64,000 nt of DNA from Candidatus Latescibacterota bacterium (GTDB taxonomy: Bacteria; Latescibacterota; UBA2968; GCA-2709665), in contig OZ220733.1 in NCBI GenBank assembly GCA_965116875.1, positions 384,001 to 448,000 of the forward strand, written 5' to 3'. The translations under genes and the position numbers were made by a program. Positions 9,095 to 62,900 of the stretch are shown in pieces. Below the pieces are notes generated by a model. The model did no database searches and was not told the origin of the DNA. It saw only the letters and a list, made by a program, of their open reading frames with translations. Positions within the stretch are counted from its first letter, which is position 1. The number at the start of each line of letters is the position of its first letter.

Positions 9095-9493
9095 ATGGCC
9101 AAAAAACGCAGACTGGCCGAGGTCGAGTGGGAACTCATGGACAGTGTCTGGCAGCTCGAACGCCAGGTCACCGTTCGCGACGTTGTGAATCACCTCTACC
9201 CAAACGGTGAAAAGGCATATACGACCGTGCAGACGATCATGAACATTCTGGCGGAAAAAGGCGTGCTGGATCGGGAAAAGATCGGCCCGGTCAACGTGTA
9301 CACCCCTGCGGTGTCCCGGGAAGACGTTGCACGGTCTGAGACGCGAACCCTGGTTTCGCGGATGTTCGACGGCTCCTTTGGCGCGCTTGCGACATATCTC
9401 GTGGATTCGGGCGAGCTTTCGAAGAAGGAACTGGATGAATTGCGCGCATTGATCGAGGAACGGGAGAATGCGAAGGAAGGAGGCTCAACGTGA
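9095..9493 (+). CDS. BlaI/MecI/CopY family transcriptional repressor
   Basis: AAGGAG RBS; LAEVEWELMDSVW, AYTTVQTIMNILAEKG, MFDGS...LATYLV. Confidence 0.93.
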   Translation: MAKKRRLAEVEWELMDSVWQLERQVTVRDVVNHLYPNGEKAYTTVQTIMNILAEKGVLDREKIGPVNVYTPAVSREDVARSETRTLVSRMFDGSFGALATYLVDSGELSKKELDELRALIEERENAKEGGST

Positions 9494-39427: not shown

Positions 39428-41395
39428 TCAATACCCGTGAATTGAATGCCCGCCCCCCGGGAACCAGATGATGTCCACAATCAACGAAACTCCCACGCCA
39501 GAGGAATAACCAACGAGTACACCCAGGAAGAACGGCACGTAACGCCGGTAGAGCGCCGCCCCGCCGATTCGCAGGATGAGAAATTTGATGGCCCAGGCCA
39601 GAAAGACCGAAAACACGGTATAACGCACAGACGTTCCCGTTCCGGCAAGCGCGAAGCCAACGGGGTGGAAGGGCCACCACGGAAACCTGTACTTCAGAAA
39701 TGTCAACAGCGACATGACCGCGGCGCCGATGCCGAACAGGCTCAGCTGCAACCGGTGAGGCGGCTCCGGATTGTTCATCTGCGTCAATACGCCGGCAAAG
39801 CCTGACTTGCTGTAGCGGGCGAAGGGATAGTCATTGAAATTGAAAGCGCCGTACGTATAACCCAGGTATAACGTGAAGAGGATCGAGAAAACGCACCCCA
39901 CTCCGAAAGCCGTCAACAACGCGGCAAGCACACGCCGCCGCCCGTCTCGGGGGCAGATGTCCGCCAGTTTGGCCCCGTGGATGACTGACGGCATGAACAG
40001 GCCCTTGCCGTAGGACGCGATGCCGTTCGTGAATCCGAGCGTCGTCAGACTGGATCCCGACAGATTCCGCGACCCGAACAGGGACGTGACAAACCGCTGC
40101 GGCCCCACGGGCATGCTGATGAAGACCAGACCGACGTCGGATACGATGCGCGAAACGCCCAGATAGAGGATAAACGCGGCCAGAACAAACGCGAACGCCA
40201 GGACAAAACTCATTCCGGCCTGCCACCACCAGAAGACAGCGAACAGAACGCACACAATCAGCCCGAATACCGCCGTCCGGAACGACATCATCTCATCTTT
40301 GTCATCCAGGGGCGCGTCCCTCCCCAGCGCCTTCAAGAGGACCAGTTTCAGGTGGTTCCGTGACGTCCAGAACCCCCATCCCACCATCGCAAAAAAGGCG
40401 CCCAGGGGCACCCACTGGAAATCGGCGGAGGCGTGGGACCACGAACTAGCGTTAATTCCCAGCCGGTTCAGAATCCCGCTGCGAACGATGAACAGAAGAT
40501 CGAAGAACCAGAGACTGAATAACACGTCTATATTGGCGAAATAGCAGAAGGAAATCGTAAACATATTGATCCGCGTCCACAGCCCCGGGAAATACCGTTC
40601 GAATTTGATCCAGGGGCCCCATCGGATATTCGGAATCTGTGGAAATCCGGGAACGAAATAGTTGATCATGTTCCAGGCCAGAATGCCGAACGCGACTGCG
40701 AATCCAATCCAGAAAAGCCGCGGGAAATCCGACGTCTCGGCCCGTTCGGTTAGGTCTGTAACGGGGCGCAAGATAGGAAACGAAATGCGTTCGCTTTCCA
40801 TCCACTGTTTTCGCAGAATTACCGCGAGGCAGACCGAACCGAAAAACAGGGCGGTAATCAGGCCCATCCAGCAAACCACCGGTACCAACCAGACGTTCCA
40901 GGGAATGGCGTCGCCGGGCGGCAGTCCTTCGAACAGGTGATTCAACGTGCCGTTCGTATTTCTCGGCGCCAGCCAATGCGGGATATTCGGATGGAAGAAC
41001 TCTCCCCACTGATTCTCCGGCGTCGCAAAGTAGAACGGCGCCGCAATGGCCCCCAGGAAATAACCCGTCAGCCCGACCGACGGTATCGACCCTCCGACGA
41101 GACCGCCCGCGAGCACAACCAGCAGTTCCGTCGAGGATAGCGCAAACCGACTTGCGAGCAACCGGCACAGCGGATTCAGTCCCAGCGCCAGCACGAGGTA
41201 GAGCAGCAGAGTGCCCATCGGAAAGTGACTCAACGTCATTCTCGACGCGTGGACCACGTACTCCACGTAGTTCACCAGGAGGTTCACTCCGACCGCCAAC
41301 ACCCCGGCCAGGAGAACGCTGCGCAGCGTCACCGTCTGCCTGTGAAGTCCACCCTCAACGTCGGCCGATACTGCGACCGCTGAACCTTCTGCCAT
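39428..41395 (-). CDS. Polytopic membrane protein, DUF6785/DUF6784-like (OPT-like putative transporter)
   Basis: Many hydrophobic segments; ILRKQW..ERISFP; RFPWWPFHPVG; WAIK..ILR.GG..LYR...PFFLG. Confidence 0.7.
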   Translation of the reverse strand: MAEGSAVAVSADVEGGLHRQTVTLRSVLLAGVLAVGVNLLVNYVEYVVHASRMTLSHFPMGTLLLYLVLALGLNPLCRLLASRFALSSTELLVVLAGGLVGGSIPSVGLTGYFLGAIAAPFYFATPENQWGEFFHPNIPHWLAPRNTNGTLNHLFEGLPPGDAIPWNVWLVPVVCWMGLITALFFGSVCLAVILRKQWMESERISFPILRPVTDLTERAETSDFPRLFWIGFAVAFGILAWNMINYFVPGFPQIPNIRWGPWIKFERYFPGLWTRINMFTISFCYFANIDVLFSLWFFDLLFIVRSGILNRLGINASSWSHASADFQWVPLGAFFAMVGWGFWTSRNHLKLVLLKALGRDAPLDDKDEMMSFRTAVFGLIVCVLFAVFWWWQAGMSFVLAFAFVLAAFILYLGVSRIVSDVGLVFISMPVGPQRFVTSLFGSRNLSGSSLTTLGFTNGIASYGKGLFMPSVIHGAKLADICPRDGRRRVLAALLTAFGVGCVFSILFTLYLGYTYGAFNFNDYPFARYSKSGFAGVLTQMNNPEPPHRLQLSLFGIGAAVMSLLTFLKYRFPWWPFHPVGFALAGTGTSVRYTVFSVFLAWAIKFLILRIGGAALYRRYVPFFLGVLVGYSSGVGVSLIVDIIWFPGGGHSIHGY

Positions 41396-45675: not shown

Positions 45676-48078
45676 TTACCTCTCCAGTCTGAACAGGACC
45701 TCCTTCTCGACTGCCGCATTGCCGTTCTGATCCTCAACGCGAACCGTCAGCCGGTTCACACCGGCTTTGGCGTTCCCCAGGTCCATCTCGAAATACTCAT
45801 GCAGGTCCGTTTCCTCCCGGACCTGTTCGGTGGAAATCGAAACCTCGGGGTTGCGTTCGCCCCTGCGGAACAGACCGCCCACGCCCGCCCAGAGGCGTCC
45901 GAACGCGCCGCCCTTCTCCGGCATCGAATGGATCGTATAATGTAACGTAAACCGGCTCTGGCCGAATGTGTCCGGTTTCAGGCCGTAGGCTTCGTAATAG
46001 ACAAACGGGTGCTGTTCCATCCGATAGGTCTTGGTGGTCATTGGAATCACCCATATGTCGCCGCCCTTGGCGTATTTTTCCAGACCGCCTTCGGTTGAAA
46101 TCTGATATCCCAGTTCCAGGCCGCTCAGCTTGAGCGTATCCAGGGAATAATCCTCCACCTCCAGTCGTTCCTTGTAGATCCCCGAATGGCCGGAAACGAG
46201 GTCCTTGACCTGAACCCGCATCTCGTAGGCGCCCGGGCTCACGTCCAGCGCGAGTTGATTCGGAATAAAGGTCCCCTTCCCGGTATAAAGCTCCTTCGAC
46301 GTGCGCAGTACCAGTTCCTCGCTGTCCTGCAGCGTCTGTCCGGACTCCGCTTCATACAGCGCAACCGCACACCCCAGGCGAAACACCGGCTGTTCCTGCG
46401 ATTCGGACCCGCTCAGACTACGCGGCGGGATTCCATAATAGACCTCCACGCGCGTCTTGCCATTGGACCCTCTGAACGTCGCCCGATCGTAGTAAAAGTC
46501 GAGAAATGCCTCACGCCCGCCCGGAAGATAGTGATCGGGCATCTGCCTGATACTCCGGTTCATGACCATCGCGGGCGAGTATTTCACGATCCGGCTGGTG
46601 CGCCGCAATGCGCCTTCGTCGAACGCCGCCGCAGGCACGGGCGCAAAGTCGAACTTCCCGCCACCCCACTCGTTGGTAAACACCACCTCGATCCCCCCGG
46701 CGACACCGGTATACACCCACGACTCCCACTTGATAAAGGACATGAAGTCCCCGGCCGTCACCTGCGTGCGGTTCGGGGACAGGGTCACCTCGTAATTGTC
46801 TCCATCCAGCTCCGACATGTCAGCAGGCGCCATGGGCTCATCGGCCAGGGCGGGCGCACCCTCCTCCACTTCCAGCGGGTCGGGCGCTTCGCCCTGATCG
46901 GTACCAGGCGGCAGTTCAGCGGGGAAATCCAGACCCACCTCGTGCATCCTGCGAACCGGAAATACGGGCCCCCGGCCAACCTCCATCATGCCGTGCGGTC
47001 CGTAGATATCGTGGGCGACACGCTCCTTGATCCGTTCCACTGAAACAGGCATGCGTGGCGCCACGCTGCCGGAAGTCGACCGGTAATCCGGCGCGCCGTA
47101 ACGAATATAGACCTCGCCCCGCCGGTCCCACGGATTCGCCTGTTCGGAAAAAGCGGCTCGCGAATACCAGACGCGCCGATAATGCTCCAGCTTGCGCTCG
47201 TTCACCGAGGTCATCAGATCCGGGTCTCTCACCGACCAGAATCTTACGAGGAACTCCCGCCGCGCCGCCGGATCGTCCTCGGTCGCCCTATGGGTAAGAA
47301 GCTCCTCCCTGGATGCGATCAGACTCACGTCCTGGTACAACAGGCGTTCCTCGGGCGGCATACGCGAGAATCCCCTGCCGTAATATTGCATTGCCAGGTC
47401 CAGAGCTTTCCGGCTCGCGCAAGCCTGCGCCACAACGGGCAACAGCAGACCTTCGTCCATCGTTACTTCCAACGAGTCCAGCGCTTGAGAGGGTACGTCC
47501 TCAAAGACGCCCGTCCGGATATAGGTCGTGACTACGGCCTGGAGCACGGTCGGATCACGCGTCCGATCTACCGATAGAGAGCGCACGTAGGCATCGAGGG
47601 AGTTTTCGTAGTCCTCGATGTCGGAATACAACCGTCCCATGAGCCGATGGACCAGTTCGAATCCGGGCGAAAGCGCGGCTGCCCGTGTGGCATGGTAGAT
47701 CGTCTGTTCTGAAAACCTCCCCTTCTCTCCCTCCGCCGTGCCCGCGCGATATGACGCCAGCGCCATGCCGAAGTGTGCTGGTGCGAACTCGACGTTTTGA
47801 GACAGCGCCGACTGAAACGCTTCTCTGGCGCCCTCCAGGTCTGCCTTCAGCAACCGGGCGTATCCGATCCGGGTGTTCTGGCCCGCCGGATCCGCGATTA
47901 TCTGCGGCCAGTACGCACGCAACGCACGCTGCAGTTCCGGGTCCGGTGCGGAGTCGGCGGTCGTGTCAGACGCGGTTTGAGGCGGCGATTCTTCGGCGCC
48001 GTTTGTAGGACCTCCCGCCAGGAAAAGGGCCAATCCGGCAAGCCAGGGAACCATCGTCCGCAGTAGAATCCGGAACAT
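45676..48078 (-). CDS. Secreted TPR + GWxTD-domain protein; paralog of 34075-37824
   Basis: Signal peptide; TPRs; RFWSVRDPD...SVNERKLEHYRRVW, PWDRRGEVYIRYGAPD, WESWVY. Confidence 0.82.
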   Translation of the reverse strand: MFRILLRTMVPWLAGLALFLAGGPTNGAEESPPQTASDTTADSAPDPELQRALRAYWPQIIADPAGQNTRIGYARLLKADLEGAREAFQSALSQNVEFAPAHFGMALASYRAGTAEGEKGRFSEQTIYHATRAAALSPGFELVHRLMGRLYSDIEDYENSLDAYVRSLSVDRTRDPTVLQAVVTTYIRTGVFEDVPSQALDSLEVTMDEGLLLPVVAQACASRKALDLAMQYYGRGFSRMPPEERLLYQDVSLIASREELLTHRATEDDPAARREFLVRFWSVRDPDLMTSVNERKLEHYRRVWYSRAAFSEQANPWDRRGEVYIRYGAPDYRSTSGSVAPRMPVSVERIKERVAHDIYGPHGMMEVGRGPVFPVRRMHEVGLDFPAELPPGTDQGEAPDPLEVEEGAPALADEPMAPADMSELDGDNYEVTLSPNRTQVTAGDFMSFIKWESWVYTGVAGGIEVVFTNEWGGGKFDFAPVPAAAFDEGALRRTSRIVKYSPAMVMNRSIRQMPDHYLPGGREAFLDFYYDRATFRGSNGKTRVEVYYGIPPRSLSGSESQEQPVFRLGCAVALYEAESGQTLQDSEELVLRTSKELYTGKGTFIPNQLALDVSPGAYEMRVQVKDLVSGHSGIYKERLEVEDYSLDTLKLSGLELGYQISTEGGLEKYAKGGDIWVIPMTTKTYRMEQHPFVYYEAYGLKPDTFGQSRFTLHYTIHSMPEKGGAFGRLWAGVGGLFRRGERNPEVSISTEQVREETDLHEYFEMDLGNAKAGVNRLTVRVEDQNGNAAVEKEVLFRLER

Positions 48079-48358
48079 TGTACTCTTCCTCGTTTCGGGT
48101 TTGCGCAAACGCCTCAGACCGCACCCGCATTCTCACTGGAACGGGTGCCGGCGCCTTGGTATTGCTACCTATAAATATAGGATGCCCACAGACGCAATTG
48201 GTTGCAGAAAATCAAGAGGGACGGGAGAGGGGAGAGAACCACACCCCGGCCCACCACCTGGTGAGACGTAAGCCGGGAGAGGGTAGAGATCGCATGCCGT
48301 GTAAGTTTTCTTGTCATGCCGCAGGCAAGACGGAGGAACATATTGGCAAGGGCTTCTT

Positions 48359-48423: not shown

Positions 48424-48461
48424 ATAGAAAAGGAGGACGATCCGGCGGACCGCCCCCCTTT
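48424..48461 (-). terminator. Intrinsic terminator after the PorV-like gene
   Basis: Minus strand reads AAAGGGGGGCGGTCC-GCC-GGATCGTCCTCCTTT followed by TCTATTT. Confidence 0.7.
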
Positions 48462-48483: not shown

Positions 48484-49527
48484 CTAGAATGTCCCGCCCA
48501 CGGACAGACGCAACGGTGGATCGAAAATGCCCAGATCCGCATTGTGGTAGGAGAGGTCCACTGTGATCAGCTGACCGCCCGGCAGTTCGTGCTTCAGACC
48601 GGCGCCGACGCTCCAGCTTTCAAGTGCGGTATGCGTCCTGTAGCCGGCGCGAAGCGCGAGCGTGTTTTCCAGCCAGAGTTCCCCGCCCGCGCGGGTGATC
48701 GGCCGGAAGTCCGTCACGAACTCGTGCTCGAGGGAGAGCGTGAAGTATCCGGGATCGCCCTTCTGTCCGAATATCTCCATCGCTCCGCCGAGGGAGTATG
48801 TGGTGGGCATCGCCGCCGTGAAACCGCCTTCCGTTACCTTGACGTTCGGGCCCAGGTTCCGGAAACTCATGGCGATCCTGCTGCTCCGGTACCCCGTGTA
48901 GAAGTGGGTGCCGATGCTGTAATCCAGTGTCGAAACCTTCTCCAGGTAAAGATCTTCCTGGATCCAGCGAATTTGACCGCCCAGCATGAATTTGTCGGTC
49001 ATCTTCTTCGCGAATACCGCGCCGAGGGCGATATCGCCCACCTGCGCCATGGTCCCGGTGCCCCAGGGAGCCGTGGGTGTGGTAACCTCGAATTCTTCGG
49101 CCGCGAAACTCGTGACCGTGAACCCGATAATTCCGAATCCGGCGTTGAACGCCAGCGCCCCGGAAACCAGTGAGGAATTGGCCAGCCAGCGGGTGTAGTT
49201 CAGGGTATAGGCCACGTTTTCGACGTGCCCCAGGCCCGCGGCGTTCCAGAACGCGGACGTGATGTCGTCAGCGATGGCGGTATAAGCGCCGCCCATCGCC
49301 TCAGCGCGCGCGCCCTGGCCGATTTTCAGGAACGGAAATTCGGAAAGTCCCACACGTTCGACCCAGAGGCCCCAGGCCTTGTCTACGTTCTCCATCTTCG
49401 GATCGATCAACGCCCCGTCGCGCGACCCGGTGCCGGGCGCCGGCTGCTCAACCGCCCACGCCGGCGTCACGGACAGGAGAGCGACGGTCACGAGGGCCAA
49501 TCCCAAGATGTACCATCCTTTTTTCAT
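48484..49527 (-). CDS. PorV/PorQ family outer-membrane beta-barrel
   Basis: Signal peptide; FLKIGQGARAEAMGGAY.A..DD..S.FWNAAGL; LALRAGY; terminal Phe. Confidence 0.88.
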   Translation of the reverse strand: MKKGWYILGLALVTVALLSVTPAWAVEQPAPGTGSRDGALIDPKMENVDKAWGLWVERVGLSEFPFLKIGQGARAEAMGGAYTAIADDITSAFWNAAGLGHVENVAYTLNYTRWLANSSLVSGALAFNAGFGIIGFTVTSFAAEEFEVTTPTAPWGTGTMAQVGDIALGAVFAKKMTDKFMLGGQIRWIQEDLYLEKVSTLDYSIGTHFYTGYRSSRIAMSFRNLGPNVKVTEGGFTAAMPTTYSLGGAMEIFGQKGDPGYFTLSLEHEFVTDFRPITRAGGELWLENTLALRAGYRTHTALESWSVGAGLKHELPGGQLITVDLSYHNADLGIFDPPLRLSVGGTF

Positions 49528-49557
49528 AACAATTCTCCTTCAACGTCGCGAGGTTCG

Positions 49558-51945
49558 TTAACGGATCACGACAAACGTGCCGGTCTTGATCTTTCCGGCG
49601 CCAGCTGATGGTTCAATGCCATGCACGGCATAGAAATAGATTCCCGGACCCACGAGCGCCCGGATGGTGGAATACGGACGGCCGGTCCAACTGGTCTCGC
49701 TGGAAGAAATGCCCTTCTGGCGCAGGACCTGAATCAGCTGTCCGGCTGTGTTGAAGATATAAATGAACGAGTTGGACGGCACGTTCACGAACCGGATCTT
49801 CACGCCGCCGCCGTACTCGTTGGTGCCGTTGGCCATGTAGGGATTCGGCACCACCACGATATCGCGTTCCAGCGCGTCCGCGGCCGCCACGAACGGCAGC
49901 ACGGGCGACCCGCGGTTGACCTGGAGGAAGTTGGAGAACGGCCCCTCCTGCCCGTTCTGGAGGAACTTCTGCGCCCTGGGCGGGAGGTCCGCAAAGGTCA
50001 TGGTTCCGTCATTGTTCATCCAGTCGTCATGCGGTTGCTGGTAGGCCCGAATGCTGTAGTAATAGAAGAATCCGGCATTGGAGCTCGCATCGGACCAGCC
50101 GTACATCCCGGGACGGTCGGCGCGCCGGCCGTCGCTGGCCTGGTTCGCCAGCCCAACCGCCGTGCTTTCATTGCCCTCCGCGGCGGCCACGGGCCAGTCG
50201 GCGCCCGCATCGTACGTGACACCCGCCGGCAACGGCCCGCCGACGGGAATGTCACCGACGAGCGAGAACGGGCCGGTGGCCGTGAGCGTTCCACGCAGCC
50301 CGCGGTAGATGCGGAAGCCGGCCACGTCGGCCGAGCCGTAGTCCGGATGAACCGCGCCCTGGGCCTCCGCGGCCCAGAACAGTTTCACCTTCGCGTTCTC
50401 GTCGCTCTTCACGTAGACGTCGACGTCGGGTGGGCCATCCGGAATGTCAAAGCCGCTCTGATAGGCGAACAGCGCGTGCTCCAGGTGTTCTACGATCGCC
50501 TGCTCTCCCTGCAGATAGCTGGCCTTATCGGCCGTGAGGGACCACTGCCAGATGTCTATAGGGCTTTTGCCGGGGCCCGCATACTCCGCGCCGGAGCCGG
50601 CAACGTACGCCACCACGACCTTGGCCTTGTCGCCCGGGCCGAGCGCCCATGGACCGTACACCTGCGCGTTCGTGAAGCCGCCAACCTCGGTGGGGTTGTC
50701 CTGTGCGGACGTCGCGGTCAGCTTCGCGAACGCCTCCGCAGGGGTCTCGCCTTCAAGGACAGGCTCGTCGTAGTCGGACGTCGTACGCACGTTCCACCAG
50801 CCCTGGTAGACCGGCTGGTCTTCCGCGGGCTGCACGTACTGACCCGCATCGTGCATATTGAACGCGTGCCTGGGATCGGCCGGGCTGTCCGCGAACGCGA
50901 CGGGCGCCATGCCCACGAACGAGTGGGAGGCCAGCTTGCCGTCCGGGAAGGCCATTTCCTTCAGGTCGGAAGTCTCGATGTCCTTGATCCACGGGTCGCC
51001 CGTATCCTCCCAGGCCTTGAACGGGCTGTCTCCGTCGAACTGATAGCTCAGCTTGAGTCCCTGCGCCCTGGCCGCACTGATCGACACAGGCCCGCCGGGG
51101 CCGCCGTCCACGTAGTTTCCAGCCTCCGTGTACCGGAAGTGATCGTCGAGACCGTCGTCCAGCCACCGCCACCACCGGCCGCCGCCGCGGTTGTTATCGG
51201 CCGTTTCGTTGATCTTCCACGTGGCCACCAGCGGCAGGTACACTTCATTGTGCCGGTCGCTACCGGTGTTTTCCAGGGTAAATTCCGCGATGACGAAATC
51301 GTCGAACATCTGGTGGGACCAGTTGTGGACCTTCCGCGTGATTGTGATGTCGAACTTGTTCGTCCACTTGGCGACCAGAATCTCTTCCGCAAACGCGTCG
51401 TCCGGCGTGTATTCTCCGGGCGAGAAGTTCCAGATCAATCTTGGCGGCGCGCTGACGTCGTTTTCATCGGGCACGTTCGCGCCTGGCCAGTAGTTGCTGG
51501 ACGACGTAAACGTCGCGGAACGACCCTGCTCCCACTCCGTGGCCGCGCCCAGGTGCGCCTCGGGCCCGCTGGACGGGTCGTAGACCAGCGGTGTGATGTC
51601 GGGGCTCTTGCCCCTGGGGCCGGTCCAGGCCGCATCCACGCCGCCGGGCCCCACGACCATGATCCACGTGCCGAAACCAACCGCGTTACCGCCCCGGCGC
51701 GTATAATTGGAGCTGGCGTTGCTACTGGGGATGTTCGCCCAGCCGGGATACCAGAACATATCCGGCTCTCCCGTCTGCCCGCTTCCCAGGTTCCAGCCGC
51801 CCATGGTACCGTCCGAGTTCCAGCTGATCTGGAGGTGACCTCGGCTGGTGGAAAGCCTCGGGGTGTCGCTCTGGTCTACCGCCCAGGCGCCCACCGGCAG
51901 GAGCAAGCCGCACACAAGCGCCACAAGCTTGATGCCTGGTTTCAT
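49558..51945 (-). CDS. Secreted hypothetical protein with FN3-like domain and C-terminal T9SS type-A/FlgD-like domain
   Basis: Signal peptide; PP.V...V.L.W...GFRIYR (FN3-like); C-terminal IVVVPNPY..IRFVNVP..IYIFNTAGQLI..W..GIYFY..GTFVVIR. Confidence 0.75.
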   Translation of the reverse strand: MKPGIKLVALVCGLLLPVGAWAVDQSDTPRLSTSRGHLQISWNSDGTMGGWNLGSGQTGEPDMFWYPGWANIPSSNASSNYTRRGGNAVGFGTWIMVVGPGGVDAAWTGPRGKSPDITPLVYDPSSGPEAHLGAATEWEQGRSATFTSSSNYWPGANVPDENDVSAPPRLIWNFSPGEYTPDDAFAEEILVAKWTNKFDITITRKVHNWSHQMFDDFVIAEFTLENTGSDRHNEVYLPLVATWKINETADNNRGGGRWWRWLDDGLDDHFRYTEAGNYVDGGPGGPVSISAARAQGLKLSYQFDGDSPFKAWEDTGDPWIKDIETSDLKEMAFPDGKLASHSFVGMAPVAFADSPADPRHAFNMHDAGQYVQPAEDQPVYQGWWNVRTTSDYDEPVLEGETPAEAFAKLTATSAQDNPTEVGGFTNAQVYGPWALGPGDKAKVVVAYVAGSGAEYAGPGKSPIDIWQWSLTADKASYLQGEQAIVEHLEHALFAYQSGFDIPDGPPDVDVYVKSDENAKVKLFWAAEAQGAVHPDYGSADVAGFRIYRGLRGTLTATGPFSLVGDIPVGGPLPAGVTYDAGADWPVAAAEGNESTAVGLANQASDGRRADRPGMYGWSDASSNAGFFYYYSIRAYQQPHDDWMNNDGTMTFADLPPRAQKFLQNGQEGPFSNFLQVNRGSPVLPFVAAADALERDIVVVPNPYMANGTNEYGGGVKIRFVNVPSNSFIYIFNTAGQLIQVLRQKGISSSETSWTGRPYSTIRALVGPGIYFYAVHGIEPSAGAGKIKTGTFVVIR

Positions 51946-51966
51946 ACTTGCTTCTCCCTTTCGATT

Positions 51967-51997
51967 AACGGGGGACGGGCAAACCCGCCCCCCGGTT
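51967..51997 (-). promoter_or_regulatory. Intercistronic GC-rich hairpin (mRNA stability element or partial terminator)
   Basis: GGGGG-A-CGGG-CAAA-CCCG-C-CCCCC between the TBDR and the next gene; no long U tract. Confidence 0.55.
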
Positions 51998-52009
51998 ACG
52001 TTAACTCAA

Positions 52010-55000
52010 TTAGAAGTTGACTTTCAGACCCAAGCCCACCTCGCGCGGCTTGCCGTAGTACCGGGTCAACTCGTTGTAGTCCCCGTACGTGAGGTAGTCC
52101 TGGTCGTTCGGCCTGGGGACGTTCAGGCCCCAGCGGACGTAGTCGGGATAGGATCCGCCGACGGGGCTGTCCTGCTGGTTGAACAGATTGAAGATCTCCA
52201 CGTAGAACACGGCGTTCCGCTGCCCGCTCTCCACAAGGGTCTTCTCGACCTGCAGGTCGGTCCAGGTTCGGATGGGCCTGTGGCGAAGTTCCGGCTGCTT
52301 CCCGGGCGGCGTGTACCATTGGGGTCTGCCGCTCTGAATGCGCCAGACCATATTCGCGCGCAGTCCGCCCACCGCGTGGAACTGACGCAGCCCGGGACCG
52401 AAGTCCATGGGCGTATCCAGGTACAGCGAGAGGCTGGACTGGACACGAAGGTCAGACCCTTTCGGGTTGAACAGCCGGCCGCCGCCGTACGTGGGCTGCC
52501 AGACACCGTTCATATTGGCCGGCGCGTCGTAGGCCTTCTGGATGTCCATGAACTCGAAAATCACGAACTGATACCTGTCCGTGATGGCTCTGGACCTGCT
52601 CCGCCACCAGCTGGCGACCCTCGTGGCAAGCTTCATCCGTTCTTCCAGAGAGAAATCCTTGCGCACGTATGCAGACCCGTTCCATTCCCAATCGTGATAC
52701 TGATCGGGGTTCATTACGTACGAGGAATCCGGGTAGAACATGGTGGCGTTGGAGCCCACGCGCGCCGTAGACGCCCAGCCGAAGTTGATGGCCGCGTTGA
52801 ACGAGAAATAGTGGCTGAAGCCCTTGCGCACGTGCAACTCGAGGCCTCTCATGTCCTGGTAAGAACTGGGCTTGCGGCCCCAGACCCAGGTTGTGCGCTG
52901 CGGCTCGTACCAGTACCGGCTTCCTGAGGAAATCTTGCCGATGGCGCTCTTGTAATAGGCCGCTATACCCGCCGTATAGTCTGCGACAAAGTTCCAGTCG
53001 GCGCCCGCCTCGTAAGCCCGGGTTCGGGTAAGGGCAACGTAGGGGTTCGCCATCCGGACCTGCCCGTGCAGACCCCGGAACGAGTCCCACGCCACGTGGG
53101 CATCGGGGCCGTTCGCCCGCCACTGCTCGCGGAAGTACTCGAACAGGTCGGGCACCTTGGCGTAGAGACCGGCCGTGAAGTGGAAGGCCGACCGCTGCGT
53201 GATGGGATGGGAGATCCCGAATCGCGGGCTGAACTGGGTCGCCCACTGCGGGTCGACCGTGACCATATCCACGTGCTTGATGAGCCAGCGGTTCTGCGGC
53301 GTCTGAAGCTGCGAGACGTTGTAGAACCGGTGGTTGGTGTAGAGCGCGTCGAACCGGATGCCCGCGTTCATCACCATCCCCTCGAACTCCATCTTGTCCT
53401 GCAGATAGAATCCGATCTGAATGGGATTGATGGGCGCTTTCACGTCGGGCAGATTACCCGAGTGGGTGATAAAGTCCACAATCCGCTGGCTTGGGTTCGG
53501 CGCATTGTAGTTCAGGTAATAGATGCTGAACCGGGTGAGATCCATTCCGCCCTTGACGAAGTGTCCCTTGGTGACCTGGGACGACACGTCCAGCTTCAGA
53601 TTCAGCCGGCTCCGGTCCGCAATGGTGTAGTTCGCGACGTTGGCGGGCCTTACGTTGAACCAGCCGTCGAGATCCTTCTCGCCGAATACCGTTGTGGGGA
53701 ACCCGAACTGGTCTCTCGGCCACTTCGTATCCTGGGTATCTTCCAGCGTTGTGTAGAACGACACCCTGGCTTCGTAGAACGTCTTGGGTGAAACCGTGTG
53801 CGTCAGCGACGCGTAGGTGACCCGGTCGGTCACGACCCGTCCGCCGGCGCCGGACCCCTCCGGCAGAAAGATGTTCTGACCGTTGGACGCCCTGTCGCGC
53901 TGGGTGTTCGTTCCCCTGTTGTAATATTCAGCCGTGGAATAGATCTGGCCGATGCTCACCTTCGCGTCGGCGCCTGGCCGGAACGTCAGCTTGGCGTTGC
54001 CGCGGAAATCCAGCGGCGTGGACAGCGTGGGAAAGCCGCCGGACATAACGCTGGTCAGGCTGGTGGCGCCAAGGCTCGGGTCGAAGGTGGCATTGCGAAC
54101 GGACGTGTTCAACACGTCGGTGGGCTGCCGGGTCCACCTCGCGCTTGCGAAGAAACTGGCCTGGTCGCCCATCGGCCCCGAAATGCCGCCTTCAATATAA
54201 TACCCCTTGATGTCGGTGTATTCTATGGCCCTGTGCGCAAGGCCCACCTCGTCGTCGGGCGTGCCCGGAACGCCATCCTCGCCGTCGCTCAGAATCACCG
54301 TTTCCGCGCGCCACTCACGGTCGTCCCACTTGAGCCTGTCGCGGTGATACGCGCTCTCGTAGAGATTTGCGCCCCAGTGCTTCTGGCTTGGGGGCGTATA
54401 GCGGAGATCGCCCCAGCCGCGGAAGTCCCGTCCGCCGTCTTTCGTGATGATGGAGACCGCGCCGGATTCCAGGTTGCCGTATTCCGCGCTCGCGCCGCCT
54501 GAAATCACCGTGATTTCCTGAACGGCGGTTTTGGAGGGTCCGGTGAACTGCCTGCCGTAGCCGTCGTTGTTCGGCAGAACCACGCCGTCCACCATCAGGA
54601 TGCCGTCTTTCGAGTCTCCGCCACGGATGACGTTGGCATTGTTGAGCTGCACACCCGGATTCAATGTAACCAGGTCGGTGACCGAGCGGGCCATAGGCAG
54701 CGATTCCAGCTGCTCGGCGCTCATCACGTAGTGACTGGTGGTCTTGTCAGGCTCCACCGGCGGCCGCTCCGCCGTGACCACGAGTTCTTCGGCTTCGAGC
54801 GCCGTCTCCTTCAACTGGAAATCGACGGTCGTGGTAAAGTCGGCCTGGATCCGCACGTCCGTCTTGGTAACGGCGTTGTAGCCGACCATGGATGCCACCA
54901 GCGTAATGTTGCCCGGGTCGACGGAAATGACAAGATAGTATCCGTCCGCGTCCGACTGGGCGCCCCTGCGGGTGCCTTCGATCACGACGTTTACACCCGG

Positions 55001-55135
55001 CAGCGGTTCGCCGGACGCCGCATCCATGATGCGCCCGGTCAGTTTACCGGTCTGGCCCGCAAACGCGTCCTGTGTGAAGCCAATCAGCACGAAGAGCGCG
55101 ACCGGCAAAGCCACAAACAACTTCCATCTGTTCAT
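52010..55135 (-). CDS. TonB-dependent outer-membrane receptor
   Basis: Signal peptide; GK.TGR..DA.SGEPLPGVNV (CarboxypepD_reg-like); plug IRGG..MVDGV, GG.SAEYGN; YLQDKME, FSPRFG; terminal Phe. Confidence 0.93.
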   Translation of the reverse strand: MNRWKLFVALPVALFVLIGFTQDAFAGQTGKLTGRIMDAASGEPLPGVNVVIEGTRRGAQSDADGYYLVISVDPGNITLVASMVGYNAVTKTDVRIQADFTTTVDFQLKETALEAEELVVTAERPPVEPDKTTSHYVMSAEQLESLPMARSVTDLVTLNPGVQLNNANVIRGGDSKDGILMVDGVVLPNNDGYGRQFTGPSKTAVQEITVISGGASAEYGNLESGAVSIITKDGGRDFRGWGDLRYTPPSQKHWGANLYESAYHRDRLKWDDREWRAETVILSDGEDGVPGTPDDEVGLAHRAIEYTDIKGYYIEGGISGPMGDQASFFASARWTRQPTDVLNTSVRNATFDPSLGATSLTSVMSGGFPTLSTPLDFRGNAKLTFRPGADAKVSIGQIYSTAEYYNRGTNTQRDRASNGQNIFLPEGSGAGGRVVTDRVTYASLTHTVSPKTFYEARVSFYTTLEDTQDTKWPRDQFGFPTTVFGEKDLDGWFNVRPANVANYTIADRSRLNLKLDVSSQVTKGHFVKGGMDLTRFSIYYLNYNAPNPSQRIVDFITHSGNLPDVKAPINPIQIGFYLQDKMEFEGMVMNAGIRFDALYTNHRFYNVSQLQTPQNRWLIKHVDMVTVDPQWATQFSPRFGISHPITQRSAFHFTAGLYAKVPDLFEYFREQWRANGPDAHVAWDSFRGLHGQVRMANPYVALTRTRAYEAGADWNFVADYTAGIAAYYKSAIGKISSGSRYWYEPQRTTWVWGRKPSSYQDMRGLELHVRKGFSHYFSFNAAINFGWASTARVGSNATMFYPDSSYVMNPDQYHDWEWNGSAYVRKDFSLEERMKLATRVASWWRSRSRAITDRYQFVIFEFMDIQKAYDAPANMNGVWQPTYGGGRLFNPKGSDLRVQSSLSLYLDTPMDFGPGLRQFHAVGGLRANMVWRIQSGRPQWYTPPGKQPELRHRPIRTWTDLQVEKTLVESGQRNAVFYVEIFNLFNQQDSPVGGSYPDYVRWGLNVPRPNDQDYLTYGDYNELTRYYGKPREVGLGLKVNF

Positions 55136-55165
55136 CTGAATACCTCCTTCGAAAGGACTCCGCGG

Positions 55166-55864
55166 CTATTTCCCGCTGAAGTAGAATTTAACCCCGGCTC
55201 CGAAGTCCAGCATCTGCAGGGGGAAGGTTTCGGAAATTTCCCAGTCTTCCAGGCCCCGAAGGTCCCCGATCATCATGTTGTACCGCGCACGAAGGTCCAC
55301 GGCCACGTTGTCGACGACAAAGGCTTCGACACCCAGCCCCGCGTTAATCCCCAGCGCGAACCGCTCGTCGGAGAACGGTTCCAGCTCAAGAACCAGGTCG
55401 CCTGTCTGACCGGGCCAGAGCAACCCGCTGACGTCGTTCCTGTACCGGTAGAAGCCGCCGCCCACCGCGACGTACGGGGCGAAACTGCTGGCAGAGAACG
55501 GCTGTCCGATCTGCCGCAGCCTGACGAGGGCGTTTACCAGCAGACTGTTCAGGCTCATATTGCTGGACGCGTTCGGGCTGGTGTAGTCGTTGCCGTCGGT
55601 CCAGGTGAACGTACGAGTCAGCAGGCTCCCGTCGGTGAAGTTGCCGCTGTGAAACTCAAGCTCCACGGTTACGTTCGACGCGGGCACGTAGGCCGCGTTC
55701 AGCCCGAACTTGGAATCGTTGTCGTACCACTCGCCCAGACCGAAGACCGGCACGTTGTAATTCGCAAACACGCCGACTCCCCAACTGCCTTCCTGGGCAA
55801 CAGCAGGCCACGCTGATATCGAGAATACGAGAATCAACAGGCCAACAACCCTGAACACCTTCAT
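55166..55864 (-). CDS. Small outer-membrane beta-barrel (OmpA/OmpW-like)
   Basis: AAGGAGG RBS; signal peptide; PYVAVGGG, GINAGLGVE, GAGVKFYF. Confidence 0.85.
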   Translation of the reverse strand: MKVFRVVGLLILVFSISAWPAVAQEGSWGVGVFANYNVPVFGLGEWYDNDSKFGLNAAYVPASNVTVELEFHSGNFTDGSLLTRTFTWTDGNDYTSPNASSNMSLNSLLVNALVRLRQIGQPFSASSFAPYVAVGGGFYRYRNDVSGLLWPGQTGDLVLELEPFSDERFALGINAGLGVEAFVVDNVAVDLRARYNMMIGDLRGLEDWEISETFPLQMLDFGAGVKFYFSGK

Positions 55865-56004: not shown

Positions 56005-56046
56005 ATAAAAAAAGGGCAATGCCGTCCGGATACCGGACGCGCCCCG
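56005..56046 (-). terminator. Intrinsic terminator within the putative leader of the OMP-TBDR operon
   Basis: Minus strand reads GGGCGCGTCCGG-TAT-CCGGACGGCATTGCCC followed by T7. Confidence 0.75.
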
Positions 56047-56172
56047 TTAACGCACTCCTGCTTCCAACCTGTTGTATCTATAATAAAGGACTACGCGGTA
56101 GCAATTTAACATAAGCCCACCGGTGGATCGCTTCGATTTGTAATCAAGTGCACAACCGCAGGGTATCGACAG

Positions 56173-56201
56173 AAGATATATAAGGAATTCTCAAATGTCA
56201 A
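56173..56201 (-). promoter_or_regulatory. Sigma70-type promoter directed toward the OMP-TBDR operon
   Basis: Minus strand TTGACA (56201-56196), 17 nt spacer, TATCTT (56178-56173) in AT-rich context. Confidence 0.7.
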
Positions 56202-57253: not shown

Positions 57254-57964
57254 ACGGGAGACGAGTAGAGGAGAGAGTGGAGAGAAGTGAGAAAAGAGAG
57301 AAGGCGAAAATCGAGGAGAGAGTGGAGAGAAGTGAGTAAAGAGAGAGACGAGGGCCTCTCGCTCCGCTTCGCTACCGAGATTCCCGATCTGCATTTCCCC
57401 ACTCCTCTTGCCTCACTCCTCGCCCGACTTGCCTCTCGCGTTTCCCGATCTGCCTTTTCTCACTCCTCACTCCTCTTACCTCACTCCTGGAGCGGCGGAA
57501 GGGGGCAACGGGAGATGCGTAGAGTAGAGAGTGGAGAGAAGTGAGTAAAGAGAGAGACGAGGACCTCTCGCTCCTCTTCCCTACCGCGATTCCCGATCTG
57601 CATTTCCTCACTCCTCTTGCCTCACTCCTCGCCCGACTTGCCTCTCGCGTTTCCCGGTCTGCTTTTTCTCACTCCTCACTCCTCTTACCTCACTCCTGGT
57701 ACGGCGGAAGGGGGCAACGGGAGATGCGTAGAGTAGAGAGTGGAGAGAAGTGAGAAAAGAGAGAAGGCGAAAATCGAGAAGAGAGCGGAGAGAAGTAAGA
57801 AAAGAGAGAGACGAGGGCCCCTCGCTCCTCTTCCCTACCGCGATTCCCGATCTGCATTTCCTCACTCCTCTTGCCTCACTCCTCGCCCGACTTGCCTCTC
57901 GCGTTTCCCGATCTGCTTTTTCTCACTCCTCACTCCTCTTACCTCACTCCTGGTACGGCGGAAG
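57254..57964. repeat. Three tandem copies of a ~210-255 bp purine-block/pyrimidine-block element
   Basis: Units begin ACGGGAGA at 57254, 57508, 57717; near-identical CGATCTGCATTTCC.CACTCCTCTTGCCTCACTCCTCGCCCGACTTGCC cores. Confidence 0.92.
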
Positions 57965-59837: not shown

Positions 59838-59968
59838 GCCGCGGCGAAAACCCTTCCGGCAGCGGCGGCAGAAGCGGACGGAAGGCCGCGTAAAACCGGC
59901 GTTTACATCTCAGTATCCAGACGATACGGTACCCGAAAAGGCTTGTCTACAATTCAAGGAGCTTGGAT

Positions 59969-62900
59969 ATGTCCAGGTGGGTTCTTCTCTTCGCAATCGT
60001 CTTGTCTTCGTGCGGGATGGCGATGGGCCAGGAGTATTTCGGGAAGAACAAGGTGACGTATGACGATTACGACTGGCATTTTCTGGAGACGGAGCATTTC
60101 AAGATCTACTTTGACAAGGCGTCGCAGCCTGCTGCGGAGTTTGCGGCGAAGGAGGCGGAGCGTGCGCTGGTGCGTCTGGAGAAGGACTTGAAGTATACGC
60201 TGAAGGACCGGTATCCGATTGTGATCTACAACTCGCACAACGGGTTTTCGGTGACGAACATCACGCCGACGGAGCAGTCGGAGTTCACGGGCGGGTTTAC
60301 GGAGTTCGCGCAGGGACGCGTGGTGATCCCGTATACGGGTTCGTATGCCGACTTCCGTCACGTGATTCACCACGAGCTGGTGCACGTGGTGACGCTGGAG
60401 ATGTGGACGGGCGGTGGATGGCTGGGCGCGATGATGACGCAGACGGCGTCGCTGCCGCCGTTGTGGATCGCGGAGGGCGTGGCGGAGTATCTGTCGCAGG
60501 GTGGATGGGACCGCGAGGGCGACAATTTCATGCGTCACGCGACGATCACGGGTTTTGTGCCGGGGATGACGTCGTTGAGCGGTGCGTTCGCGTATAAGGG
60601 GGGTCAGTCCGTCTTCGTGATGATCGAGGAGGAGTATGGCAAGGACAAGGTGGCGGAGTTCATCTCTTCGTTCCGTTCCGCGCGGTCTGTCGACAAGGCG
60701 CTGAAGGCGTCGATCGGTGAGGGTGTGGAGGAGCTGGACGAGAAGTGGCAGTTGTGGCTGAAGCGGCAGTATTGGAACGAGATCAACCTGCACCATCCGT
60801 CGGAGGAGGTGGCGAAGCAGCTGACGGAGGCGGGCGCGGGCCGTGGTTTTTACAACATTGCGCCGTCGTTTTCACCTCAGGGCGACAAGATCGCGTATGT
60901 GACGGAGCGCCAGGGTACGTTCGACATCTATTTGATGTCGGCGATCGACGGTCAGGATCTGGGGCGGCTGGTGGAGGGGGAGCGATCGTCGGACTTCGAG
61001 GGGTTGTTCGTGCTGCGGCCCGGCATCACGTGGTCGCCGGACGGGAAGCAGATCGCGTTTGCGGCGAAGTCGCGCAACAAGAACACGCTGTATACGCTGG
61101 ACGTGAGGAAGAAGCGTGTGACGAAGCGCTTCAAGTTCGATCTGGACGGGTTGTTCGAGCCCACGTGGTCGCCGGACGGGAAACAGATCGCGATCGTGGG
61201 GTTGAAGGACGGGTGGTCGGACGTGTACGTGGTGGACGTGGCGGACGAGTCGCTGCGCCGGATGACGCGTGATCCGTATGACGAGAAGCACCTGGACTGG
61301 TCGCCGGACGGGGAATGGATCGCGATCAGTTCGGACCGTCCGTCGGCGGACCTTTCGTATGACGGGACGAAGGACTTCGAGTTCGGGGTGTATGACGTGT
61401 TCGTGCTGAAGGCGGACGGGAGCGAGATCCGGCGGGTGGTGGAAAGCGAGGTGAACGACAGCCATCCCACGTGGGGTCCGGACTCGCAGACGCTGGCGTT
61501 CGTGTCGGACAGGACGGGCGTGGGCAACGTCTACATCGCGCACGTGGACGGCTCGCAGGTGTATCCGATCAGCAATCTGCTGTCGGGGGCGCGGTATATC
61601 GACTGGAGCGCGGACGGCAGGAAGCTGGCGTTCACGACGTTCCACCGGGGGGGATACGACATCTTCGTGATGAAGGACCCGCTTAAGCGGAAGCGGAGCA
61701 TGGAGGATCTGCCGCTGACGCGCTATGCGAAGCGTCTGGCAGGCATCGAGGACCGGCCGTTCGTGGAGTTGCAGCGCGACCGGCGGCAGGAGCAGAAGGT
61801 TGCCGCGACGGCGGAGGCCGACAGCGGGGCGGTGGCTGCGCAGGAGGACACGGCGGCGGCGGTGGCGGCGGACCGGAAGGTGGAGACGTGGATGTCGGAC
61901 CAGATGGCGCTGGCCGCGGCGGAGGCGAGCGGCGATGACGAGGAAGCCACGGCCGATGCCGACACGCTGGACGGCATCGGCGACAGGGCGCTGACGCTGC
62001 GCGACTGGAACAGGGAATTCACCGTGAACAAGTACCGCGTGAAACTCAAACCGGAGTTCTTCGGGGCCAACGCGGGCTTCGACACCTTCTACGGCGTCAG
62101 CAGCCTCCTGCAGTTGTCGCTGACGGACGTGATGGGCGACCATAGACTCATCATACAGACCGGCCTGAGCTTCTCCCTCAAGGACAGCGATCTCTTCCTC
62201 GGATACCAGAATCTCAAACACCAGACCAACTTCTATATCAGCGCCTTCCACACGCGCCTGTTCTTCTTCGACCGGGGGCAACTGAACGCCGATCGGTATT
62301 TTGGCGCGGAAGCAAGCCTGGTCAGGCCGTTCAGCCGCTTCAGCAGGATGGAACTGGGCACAAGGGGCATCAGGATTTCCCGCGAACGCCTGGAGCGGGA
62401 ACGTTACGACAACCGGTGGGTTCGCCGCGGATTCACCGGCAGCAGCCTGCGCGGGCTGTCGGGCACCGAAGTTGATTCGCGGGGAGCCGTGGTTTCGTAC
62501 CTGGCTCTGGTGGACGACAACTCGCTGATGGGCGGTTTCGGCGCCGTGGACGGGCGGCGGGTGCGGCTTGGCGCTGAAGGAAGCTGGGCGGGAATGCGTT
62601 TTGCGGCATTCAACGTGGACCTTCGCCAGTACCTGCTCACGCTGGGCGAATATACGCTTGCCTTTCGACTCTCCGGCGGCACCAGCTTCGGCCCCAACAA
62701 GCGAGTCTATTTCGTGGGGGGCGTCAACAACCCCGTGAATCCGAACTTCTCCACGTTCGCCAACGTGGATCAGGACCGGATCTTCTTTTCCAGTTTTGTC
62801 TGGCCGCTGCGCGGCGTGGAGTTGTTCGAGTTGGCCGGAGACTCCTATGTGCTGGCCAATGCGGCATTTCGTTTTCCCCTCATCAGGGAACTGGCCATGG

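Follow-up and report, generated by a model that had tools for sequence, protein, structure and literature searches.

A TonB-dependent transporter (TBDT), a secreted protein termed here the cargo, and a PorV/PorQ-family barrel are encoded as a three-gene module in a Latescibacterota genome and its relatives. On balance we favour, with caution, the reading that the cargo is a SusD-like binding partner of the transporter anchored by type IX secretion system (T9SS) parts, the contact between cargo and transporter being putative.

The cassette and its neighbourhood

The window is the whole stretch of 64,000 nucleotides that was analysed, from Candidatus Latescibacterota bacterium (GCA_965116875.1, contig OZ220733.1, positions 384,001 to 448,000); the close relatives of the locus lie in Latescibacterota-type genomes. 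The features discussed below are as follows.

39428..41395, minus strand: DUF6785/DUF6784 protein, loosely linked downstream neighbour (Pfam)
45676..48108, minus strand: GWxTD-domain/TPR protein, loosely linked recurrent neighbour (TIGR04514, 51 bits vs 28)
48429..48461, minus strand: intrinsic-terminator-like hairpin closing the cassette (15 pairs and a T-run)
48484..49527, minus strand: dedicated PorV/PorQ-family barrel, 347 aa (NF033709)
49558..51945, minus strand: cargo, 795 aa (open reading frame, structure model, C-terminal domain scans)
49561..49869, minus strand: segment coding for the C-terminal domain (CTD), residues 693-795, predicted docking part (complex model)
51970..51993, minus strand: GC-rich hairpin lacking a U-tail, in the gap from TBDT to cargo (folding energy)
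52010..55135, minus strand: TBDT, 1041 aa (Pfam, structure model)
55166..55864, minus strand: small outer-membrane beta-barrel protein (OMP), 232 aa (PF13505, 38.5 bits vs 28.7)
56007..56045, minus strand: hairpin in the leader with a U-run behind it, ~140 nt ahead of the OMP start (kept in 7 of 7 close sequences)
56173..56201, minus strand: Sigma70-like promoter site TTGACA-17-TATCTT (both hexamers kept in 6 of 6 orthologous loci aligned)

The sequence-only reading had described four tightly linked genes, and these are real: the four open reading frames share one orientation in the order OMP, TBDT, cargo and barrel, are separated by gaps of 30, 64 and 30 nt, and all show a coding signal under a codon model trained on the long open reading frames of the window, TBDT and cargo included. 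The ATG start of the OMP (55864) is kept in 6 of 6 orthologues. The same reading placed the genes between one promoter and one terminator. The terminator-like hairpin is present, and the position after the barrel gene carries a hairpin with z<=-2 in 9 of 23 representatives; a single promoter is not established: the region contains four promoter-like sites against 2.6+/-1.4 by chance, and the leader hairpin intervenes between the promoter-like site and the OMP start. This leader hairpin reaches a z of only -1.5 and has no match in Rfam. The hairpin pointed out after the TBDT (-25.7 kcal/mol, z -2.41, with 3 of 200 shuffles doing as well) is kept in position: hairpins with z<=-2 occur there in 9 of 23 representatives, with differing sequences, compared with 0 of 16 for the position behind the OMP and 2 of 22 for that behind the cargo. 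It probably biases mRNA stability between the transporter segment and the cargo and barrel segments.

The DUF6785 protein, a candidate inner-membrane permease, is found downstream in 50 of 80 loci (11 of 18 clades) and never upstream, and the GWxTD/TPR protein lies within 10 kb in 41 of 80 (9 of 18 clades). Around the cassette of the window lie genes for aminotransferases and a gamma-glutamyltranspeptidase, not for CAZymes, so that a glycan substrate can only be guessed from the fold. Among 149 flank representatives, SprA, PorKLMN and PorU were not seen, and the families shown for them include no SusD match.

Order and inheritance of the genes

The relatives examined are the best 80 of 368 barrel relatives, all of one lineage; they span 18 paralog clades, and one chromosome carries up to six of the 80 loci. 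TBDT, cargo and barrel are adjacent and in the same order in 77 of the 77 loci with enough flank, and the cargo gene stands directly upstream of the barrel gene in all 79 loci with room for it. In IQ-TREE phylogenies of 21 representatives, 10-11 of the 10-12 strong splits are common to the TBDT, the cargo N-domain and the barrel, with no strong conflict among the three trees. Both the conserved order and the co-divergence that the sequence-only reading had proposed to look for in relatives are present, each transporter being inherited with its own cargo and barrel. Congruent trees are also expected from co-inheritance alone.

The OMP gene is equally close yet follows a different course. It is found in 60 of the 74 loci with room for it and absent from 14, with four presence/absence changes on the TBDT tree; its own tree displays one strong conflict, corresponding to one swap, and the OMPs of loci L025 and L054 are 95% identical against 55-57% for their other three genes. 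Linkage alone therefore did not keep the OMP in step. The OMP is an accessory, an optional extra, and not a core member of the operon.

The transporter, the cargo and the barrel

The TBDT starts with a signal peptide and a CarboxypepD_reg-like extension (residues 32-120), followed by a plug (residues 132-227; PF07715, 39.4 bits vs 23.9). Its model (pLDDT 71.3) displays 22 barrel strands by DSSP count, long loops of up to ~100 residues and a C-terminal F1041. The plug and the 22-strand barrel with an aromatic end place the protein in the TonB-dependent transporter superfamily. A segment at ~110-122, in which E114, E117, V119, V120 and A122 are conserved, resembles a TonB box, and sequence and model together suggest a TonB-energised importer. 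No STN signalling domain is detected by Pfam. The top Foldseek matches are SusC 8aa0 and classical TBDTs, with similar E-values; a SusC/RagA identity is rejected by TIGR04056 (53.4 vs a cut-off of 368.25, the match confined to residues 31-221). Conservation is 50% in the plug and 17-21% in barrel loops L6-L9, while loops L1 (54%) and L11 (43%) are unusually conserved. Loops L6-L9 and the N-domain of the cargo vary most, the plug and the PorV-like barrel less.

The cargo (model pLDDT 82.8) consists of a Sec signal (1-22), a beta-supersandwich (26-501), an Fn3-like domain with insertions (~502-690) and the CTD (693-795). The earlier view that it is not a lipoprotein stands: an AxA-type cleavage site, judged by eye, lies at 20-22, and the only Cys, C12, comes after Val and is not conserved. 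Pfam and NCBIfam give no SusD match for the cargo, and the model is mainly beta. The Fn3-like domain is suggested by weak fn3 matches in 3 of 66 homologues, and an Atlas neighbour also points there. One conserved family supplies the cargo in all loci, distant clades being ~27-36% identical to the window's protein over most of the length, and is not an assortment of enzymes. Relatives amount to 4385 clusters at E<=0.001, some of them through the CTD alone, and the nearest Atlas clusters are commonest in Gemmatimonadota, Ignavibacteriota and Fidelibacterota.

By structure comparison, the N-domain has a galactose-mutarotase-like beta-supersandwich fold, and no other part of the cargo varies as much (conservation 36.5%). 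The best matches, at Z 17-18, are N-terminal domains without catalytic function; VIA gives Z 18.4 for 8rf9 (rmsd 3.5, 259 aligned) and Z 18.2 for the N-terminal domain of glucoamylase 1lf6 (rmsd 3.0, 236 aligned). In glycoside hydrolases and phosphorylases the match falls on the beta-sandwich parts alone, the top matches covering mainly the N-terminal portions of the enzymes. A GH94/GH15/GH65/GH116 enzyme is rejected, as the model beyond residue 501 consists of beta domains and contains no helical (alpha/alpha)6 barrel.

The CTD has seven strands between residues 697 and 793 of the model and ends a protein with a Sec signal; T9SS CTDs are beta-sandwiches with seven strands and 70-100 residues, and PMC11285876 describes their 3+4 architecture. 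The homology to T9SS CTDs proposed from sequence is supported across the family: at E<=0.1, the type A model TIGR04183 matches 33 of 44 CTD members (best E 1.8e-4), CHU_C/PF13585 of type B matches 35 (best E 1.9e-6, a member that may pass the cut-off), and the PorZ model matches 21 (best E 6.7e-8). The label "type A" is not supported, since the window CTD falls under the cut-offs of both types (TIGR04183 18.2 vs 23; CHU_C 18.6 vs 27). PF18962, also type A, matches 10 of 44 members and 6 of 66 wider homologues; CHU_C is found in 19 of those 66, none reaching the cut-off, and TIGR04131 (type B) in 2 of 44. Structure matches of the whole cargo are dominated by the N-domain, the share of the CTD being a weak Foldseek match to PorZ 5m11 (rank 13, prob 0.57). 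A related genome (L061) encodes a canonical type A CTD protein (TIGR04183 32.6 vs 23), which lends indirect support at most to secretion through SprA.

The barrel is a member of the PorV/PorQ family (NF033709, 152.5 bits vs a cut-off of 90), is matched by profile to the PorV of F. johnsoniae (6h3i_F, E 5.9e-18) and is 49% conserved. It is neither PorV proper (NF033710, 59.8 vs 250) nor PorQ proper (NF033711, 60.5 vs 220), and among Pfam and NCBIfam it matches PorV/PorQ models only, with no PorP/SprF match. A CTD-barrel interface, another point that the sequence-only reading had put forward for checking, is predicted: the complex model of barrel residues 40-347 with cargo residues 499-795 scores 0.88 against 0.00 for the best of three controls, at least 93% of the contacts are shared between runs, and partner pLDDT is at least 74. 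The mark used is reached by 116 of 157 solved pairs and 2 of 215 mismatched pairs, counts that apply only roughly here. The predicted interface joins cargo residues 697-795 to the long-loop face of the barrel, whose extracellular side is deduced from loop lengths. Conservation at the interface exceeds that of the remainder in the CTD (0.60 vs 0.51, p 0.036) and shows no excess in the barrel (0.60 vs 0.63). Seven PDB entries contain the F. johnsoniae PorV matched by the barrel, and the high score may stem from a resemblance to solved T9SS structures with PorV, so that it does not establish binding by this copy.

Proposed mechanism, alternatives and known systems

The mechanism we propose starts from what sequence and models display, the one-to-one pairing of a TonB-energised 22-strand transporter with a Sec-exported, non-lipidated cargo and a private PorV/PorQ-family barrel. 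The cargo would cross the outer membrane via the T9SS translocon SprA, using its CTD, which the cognate barrel is predicted to grip on its extracellular long-loop face. The CTD would stay uncleaved, and the barrel would stand in for the lipid anchor of SusD. Type B CTD/PorP pairs offer a precedent for such a tether by analogy: as far as the available text of the sources goes, uncleaved CTD proteins of type B are held in place by cognate PorP/SprF barrels (PMC9143113, PMC10202324), and the CTD of PorZ is retained on PorQ (PMC10202324). The Fn3-like domain might space the beta-supersandwich over the transporter mouth, where it would act as a putative non-catalytic substrate-binding lid or docked partner, with oligosaccharides or modified sugars as the likeliest substrates. 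Each paralogous cassette would serve a different substrate and feed downstream catabolic genes, often together with the DUF6785 protein.

The barrel might instead tether a SusG-like surface enzyme whose task is to trim a polymer, or modify it, for the transporter, the supersandwich being catalytic. The GH174 fucanase 9k1g matches the fold (Z 14.6, rmsd 3.9, 244 aligned of 449), as do mutarotase-like proteins (Z 12-13), and 43 near homologues keep E187, D215, D216, D267, D304 and D314 at 91-100%, a pattern to be expected of an enzyme, which counts against a lid. However, among 65 distant homologues the conservation of these six residues is down to 57-78%, and even the near set has no His column above 58%. 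The best fold matches are the non-catalytic domains, no solved enzyme is matched by sequence, and the same cargo family stands beside every transporter whatever the neighbouring pathway. We regard a surface enzyme as unlikely, and give no greater and no lesser weight to a barrel-tethered but free-standing binding protein, like SusE/F or TbpB, that concentrates substrate and forms no stable lid. Free surface binding proteins beside TBDTs are established, and the CTD-barrel contact is the only one predicted. Against free standing, the cargo is never lost in the 77 loci and never swapped among paralogs, while the OMP is both lost and exchanged, and the conserved loops L1 and L11 of the TBDT are what a docking surface might display.

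A cargo that binds no substrate, and instead caps the large extracellular loops of the transporter structurally or assists in their assembly, appears less probable still. Loops of such length would suit a cap, and the available parts of two sources offer parallels: PG1035 has been suggested as a protective cap for PorP (PMC9143113), and BamG, a barrel of the FadL family, keeps the surface protein BamH positioned over BamA (PMC12578637). Yet a generic chaperone needs no separate, 25-35% identical copy per transporter, and within the cargo it is the N-domain that varies most. It is most improbable that the TBDT-like barrel, instead of being an importer, acts as a private channel by which the cargo is exported or displayed, or as a receptor in signalling. 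Strict one-to-one linkage also fits a dedicated secretion pair, and SprA is not seen in the flanks; but the plug, the TonB-box-like segment and the 22 strands are importer features, a folded cargo of 85 kDa would be too large for a 22-strand pore, and the lack of a detected STN domain speaks against signalling.

The favoured reading, a T9SS-anchored binding partner, invites comparison with the SusCD/RagAB utilisome of Bacteroidota. In both, a TBDT with a CarboxypepD_reg-like extension directly precedes a secreted partner that is co-inherited with it and varies in sequence, and many paralogous cassettes per genome lie upstream of catabolic genes. Here, however, the TBDT is far under the TIGR04056 cut-off, the partner is mainly beta, without lipobox or SusD Pfam match and with a T9SS-type CTD, and a third gene supplies a predicted protein anchor. 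The CTD-barrel logic is, by analogy, closer to PorP/SprF and PorQ anchoring. As in the type B pairs PG1035-PorP and SprB-SprF, the gene of a CTD protein adjoins that of its own FadL-family barrel, and CHU_C weakly matches most CTDs; unlike in these pairs, the barrel is of the PorV/PorQ family, the window CTD is under the type B cut-off, and the cassette is tied to a TBDT, a link not described in the available parts of PMC9143113 and PMC10202324. PorZ-PorQ shares an uncleaved CTD on a PorV-like barrel, here predicted, as well as the PorZ matches of nearly half of the CTDs, but PorZ is a single housekeeping component of the T9SS attachment complex, whereas here many paralogs each have a transporter, with a supersandwich as the N-domain. 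In the Bacteroidota BAM complex, BamG-BamH likewise has a FadL-family barrel holding a surface protein beside a larger barrel (PMC12578637, PMC12611786, in the portions available); BamH, though, is a lipoprotein, the large barrel is BamA, and there is no CTD. The N-terminal supersandwiches of GH94/GH15/GH65/GH116 and galactose mutarotases share the fold of cargo residues 26-501 (Z 12-18) but stand at 7-13% identity and differ by ~200 extra insertion residues and the lack here of an (alpha/alpha)6 barrel. Our literature searches returned no description of a TBDT-cargo-barrel module.

If the favoured reading is right, uncultured FCB bacteria equip importers with a substrate-binding partner without SusD, which links two separately studied machines, TonB uptake and type IX secretion, explains the many PorV/PorQ paralogs in such genomes and gives a large family of hypothetical proteins a role. 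The gene-order signature could find utilisation loci invisible to SusC/SusD-based searches, and the modules offer natural cognate CTD-barrel pairs for studies of T9SS sorting specificity. More tentatively, and at somewhat less than an even chance, the module may represent a second lidded-TBDT architecture, widespread in non-Bacteroidota FCB: a stable complex of TBDT, lid and anchor. The lid, a supersandwich secreted by the T9SS and bearing a CTD class of its own, would be clamped not by a lipid but by a private PorV-like barrel. If true, members of the large unannotated cargo family would be determinants of substrate specificity, and nutrient uptake would be a major, possibly early use of T9SS parts.

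A conserved TBDT-cargo-barrel cassette

The linkage of four genes noticed in the sequence-only reading is borne out by four open reading frames on the minus strand, all of which score as coding, with intergenic gaps of 30, 64 and 30 nt (OMP-TBDT, TBDT-cargo and cargo-barrel):

55864-55166, minus strand: OMP, an OMP_b-brl protein (accessory small barrel)
55135-52010, minus strand: TBDT, a TonB-dependent transporter
51993-51970, minus strand: hairpin after the TBDT gene, without a U-tail (z -2.41)
51945-49558, minus strand: cargo, a 795-aa protein outside every curated family
49527-48484, minus strand: barrel of the PorV/PorQ family
48461-48429, minus strand: terminator-like hairpin after the barrel gene

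Scanning genome contigs with the barrel alignment yielded 368 relatives, the best 80 of which were used as loci (62 labelled Latescibacterota/Latescibacteria, 15 Gemmatimonadota-type and 3 uncultured bacterium). Barrels under both named labels are 91-99% identical to that of the window, so the two labels appear to denote one lineage. These best 80 of 368 relatives sort into 18 clades when the barrels are grouped at 75% identity, and one chromosome may carry as many as six of them. Among them, a cargo homologue lies directly upstream of the barrel in all 79 loci with room for it. The anticipated gene order TBDT-cargo-barrel holds in 77 of 77 loci (leaving out L037, whose upstream flank is absent, and L029 and L053, with short flanks), and the OMP gene is additionally present in 60 of 74 (L017, L040 and L074 also being left out). 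The cargo genes of L053 and L059, which were scored as present by tblastn, and the TBDT gene of L019 have interrupted reading frames, possibly through assembly errors or decay. Loci L016 and L049 are two cassettes from different clades placed back to back on one contig. Alignments A3-A6 omit the truncated or interrupted loci L019, L029, L037, L040, L053, L059 and L074; of the remaining rows, thinning at a cargo identity of 95% left 44.

The trees of TBDT, cargo and barrel for 21 representatives have 10-11 of 10-12 strong splits in common and no strong conflicts, in keeping with the proposed co-divergence; the comparison was also run with FastTree on the 44 rows. Such congruence could arise from linkage alone, and the OMP gene serves as an internal contrast: it is equally close (30 nt), yet shows four state changes on the tree and one strong conflict. 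In L025 and L054, two loci of the same chromosome, the OMPs are 95% identical against 55-57% for TBDT, cargo and barrel; judging by these sequences, the accessory gene was apparently exchanged recently between cassettes. Identity among 13 representatives is 36.5% in the cargo N-domain (residues 26-501), 42% in its Fn3 and C-terminal domains, 49% in the barrel and 50% in the TBDT plug, and ranges in the TBDT loops from 17-21% (L6-L9) to 43% (L11) and 54% (L1). Cargo proteins of distant clades are about 27-36% identical and remain homologous across most of their length, and so form one partner family rather than a set of interchangeable enzymes. The cassette is a real and strongly conserved module.

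The genes had been placed between one promoter and one terminator. The terminator-like hairpin stands, and a sigma70-like site upstream of OMP (56173-56201) is kept in six of six orthologues. Between this site and the first gene lies a conserved terminator-like hairpin with a U-run, so it is not established that the genes share one unbroken transcript. The region 56007-56201 (minus strand) comprises the promoter-like site, a hairpin with a short palindrome near 56100-56120, and the terminator-like hairpin with its U-run before the OMP start. These elements are conserved in close orthologues only, and the region may encode a small RNA or act as an attenuating leader; Rfam gave zero matches in window 44-60 kb, leader included. 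A general leader motif across cassettes was rejected, the palindrome pattern being present in 2 of 26 representatives. The hairpin noted after the TBDT gene was recovered, and hairpins of unrelated sequence occupy that position in 9 of 23 representatives (0 of 16 after OMP, 2 of 22 after cargo); it may play a role in differential mRNA stability.

The cargo protein and its putative tether

As originally described, the cargo is not a lipoprotein: its signal peptide terminates in an AxA site (by eye), and its sole Cys lies outside any lipobox and is not conserved. The structure model (pLDDT 82.8) has three parts. Residues 26-501 resemble, in a structure comparison of the model, the N-terminal beta-supersandwich of glucan phosphorylases and glucoamylase (8rf9, Z 18.4, rmsd 3.5, 259 aligned; glucoamylase 1lf6, Z 18.2, rmsd 3.0, 236 aligned), with mutarotase-like proteins at Z 12-13; unlike in those enzymes, the catalytic helical barrel after the supersandwich is absent from the model. 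Residues from about 502 to 690 are Fn3-like, with weak fn3 matches in 3 of 66 homologues, and the C-terminal domain (CTD, 693-795) is modelled with seven strands. The cargo profile had no matches in a PDB sequence search, nor did the cargo match plasmid sequences. The family is large, with 4385 clusters at E<=0.001 and 1440 at 1e-10, a part of them reached via the CTD alone; the nearest Atlas clusters (queried with the homologue P0005) are commonest in Gemmatimonadota, Ignavibacteriota and Fidelibacterota, and the closest named relative is from Ca. Latescibacteria (95%).

The CTD had been taken for a type A domain of the T9SS (type IX secretion system). Its T9SS-type homology stands: among 44 CTDs scanned singly, 35 match CHU_C, 33 TIGR04183, 21 the PorZ model, 18 FlgD_ig, 10 PF18962 and 2 TIGR04131. 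The type A label is not supported, as the window's CTD scores below the type A and type B cut-offs alike. A profile of the cassette CTDs recovers no flank protein at E<0.001, though a canonical type A protein sits among the flank genes of locus L061. On sequence grounds, the domain therefore forms a separate class of T9SS-type CTD and is not demonstrably type A. The three PDB matches to the CTD profile are all chance-level.

An interface between the CTD and the PorV-like barrel, as earlier proposed, is indeed predicted. The complex model of barrel residues 40-347 with cargo residues 499-795 scores 0.88 in three runs (best control 0.00), with at least 93% of contacts agreeing between runs and partner pLDDT of at least 74; 116 of 157 solved pairs and 2 of 215 mismatched ones reach the mark used, which is only roughly applicable here. 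PorV occurs in seven solved T9SS entries, so this score may stem from resemblance to them and does not demonstrate binding. Nearly all modelled contacts set the CTD against the N-terminal segment of the barrel and its long loops, a side we read as the extracellular face. The CTD interface is slightly more conserved than the rest of the domain (0.60 vs 0.51, p 0.036); barrel interface residues show no enrichment (0.60 vs 0.63). A fusion test with 8000 candidates scored gave four PorV-family proteins of greater length, all of them lacking cargo and CTD sequence, which is weak evidence. Three PorV/PorQ-family barrels (P0297, P0298 and P0300) are fused to OmpA-like peptidoglycan-binding domains and recall the PorP-PorE link, in a single chain.

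Precedents exist for such a tether. [quoted passage not shown] Model and precedent together support a predicted tethering of the cargo by the barrel.

Transporter, neighbourhood and possible function

SusD is a lipid-anchored lid. The TBDT of the cassette carries a CarboxypepD_reg-like extension, a plug and a conserved segment near 110-122 which, from its motif, we take to be TonB-box-like. Its structure model (pLDDT 71.3) has a barrel of 22 strands whose longest loops reach about 100 residues, and Foldseek returns SusC 8aa0 and classical TBDTs at comparable E-values. Membership of the SusC family was rejected, the score lying far under the family cut-off (53.4 vs 368.25 bits).

We lean towards a reading in which the cargo would be secreted through SprA and would stay uncleaved on its own barrel (binding being predicted and retention presumed), while its supersandwich would serve the TBDT as a lid that binds substrate or as a docked partner; lid role, secretion route and substrate are all putative. 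That the cargo is instead a tethered enzyme is suggested by six conserved acids (E187, D215, D216, D267, D304 and D314), but these are kept at 57-78% in distant members and no His is conserved, and we consider this unlikely. We give the same low credence to a free-standing binding protein, less to a cargo acting as a structural cap, and very little to the TBDT-like barrel serving in export or signalling.

The flanks comprise 180 gene clusters, and 149 representatives of at least 200 aa were scanned. Families shown include sulfatases, GH130-like, heparinase-like, BNR, Gfo/Idh/MocA, xylose-isomerase-like, PhyH and aminotransferase proteins and GntR/LacI regulators; neither SusD nor SprA is among the families shown for the 149. 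The window's cassette adjoins a GWxTD protein, two aminotransferases, a gamma-glutamyltranspeptidase and a DUF6785 gene. Of the 80 loci, 50 (in 11 of 18 clades) have a DUF6785/DUF6784 gene downstream (window copy 39428-41395, minus strand) and 41 (in 9 of 18 clades) a GWxTD gene nearby; these frequencies have no genome-wide baseline and come with shorter upstream flanks. The DUF6785/DUF6784 protein is a candidate inner-membrane permease; its profile has one chance-level PDB match, and a literature search found no paper. GWxTD/TPR proteins, in the window at 45676-48108 and 34075-37824 (minus strand) and often paired near cassettes, may recur simply from their abundance in these genomes. Co-orientation was rejected as linkage evidence for both families and is uninformative, as 400 of 431 downstream genes lie on the cassette's strand.

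Elsewhere in the window, a BlaR1/M56 peptidase fused to four TonB C-terminal domains (9038-12039, plus strand), preceded by a short gene resembling a BlaI-type repressor (by eye), is a possible source of TonB. A 1085-aa protein at 59963-63220 (plus strand) combines peptidase MA-like, PD40 propeller and Omp85 domains, and outside the called genes, three copies of a 244-nt repeat (75-100% identity) lie at 57254-57960, where sucD and rpiA flank them.

T9SS may occur in further FCB phyla (PMC11285876). Chlorobiota are stated to lack SprA and SusCD in PMC12611786 and its preprint (10.1101/2025.02.17.638638), passages of the former treating SusD as a lipid-anchored lid; the portions available of both do not mention Latescibacterota, and the searchable supplements of PMC12611786 have no match to Latescibacter or Calditrich. 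No module of this type is described in a literature search covering titles and abstract openings, with subscription papers mostly outside its scope. The logic of such anchoring is already known from the PorP/SprF-type B CTD, PorZ-PorQ and BamG-BamH precedents; that search turned up no description of its being coupled in a fixed way to a TBDT. The cassette does not belong to SusCD, and its way of working is probably similar.
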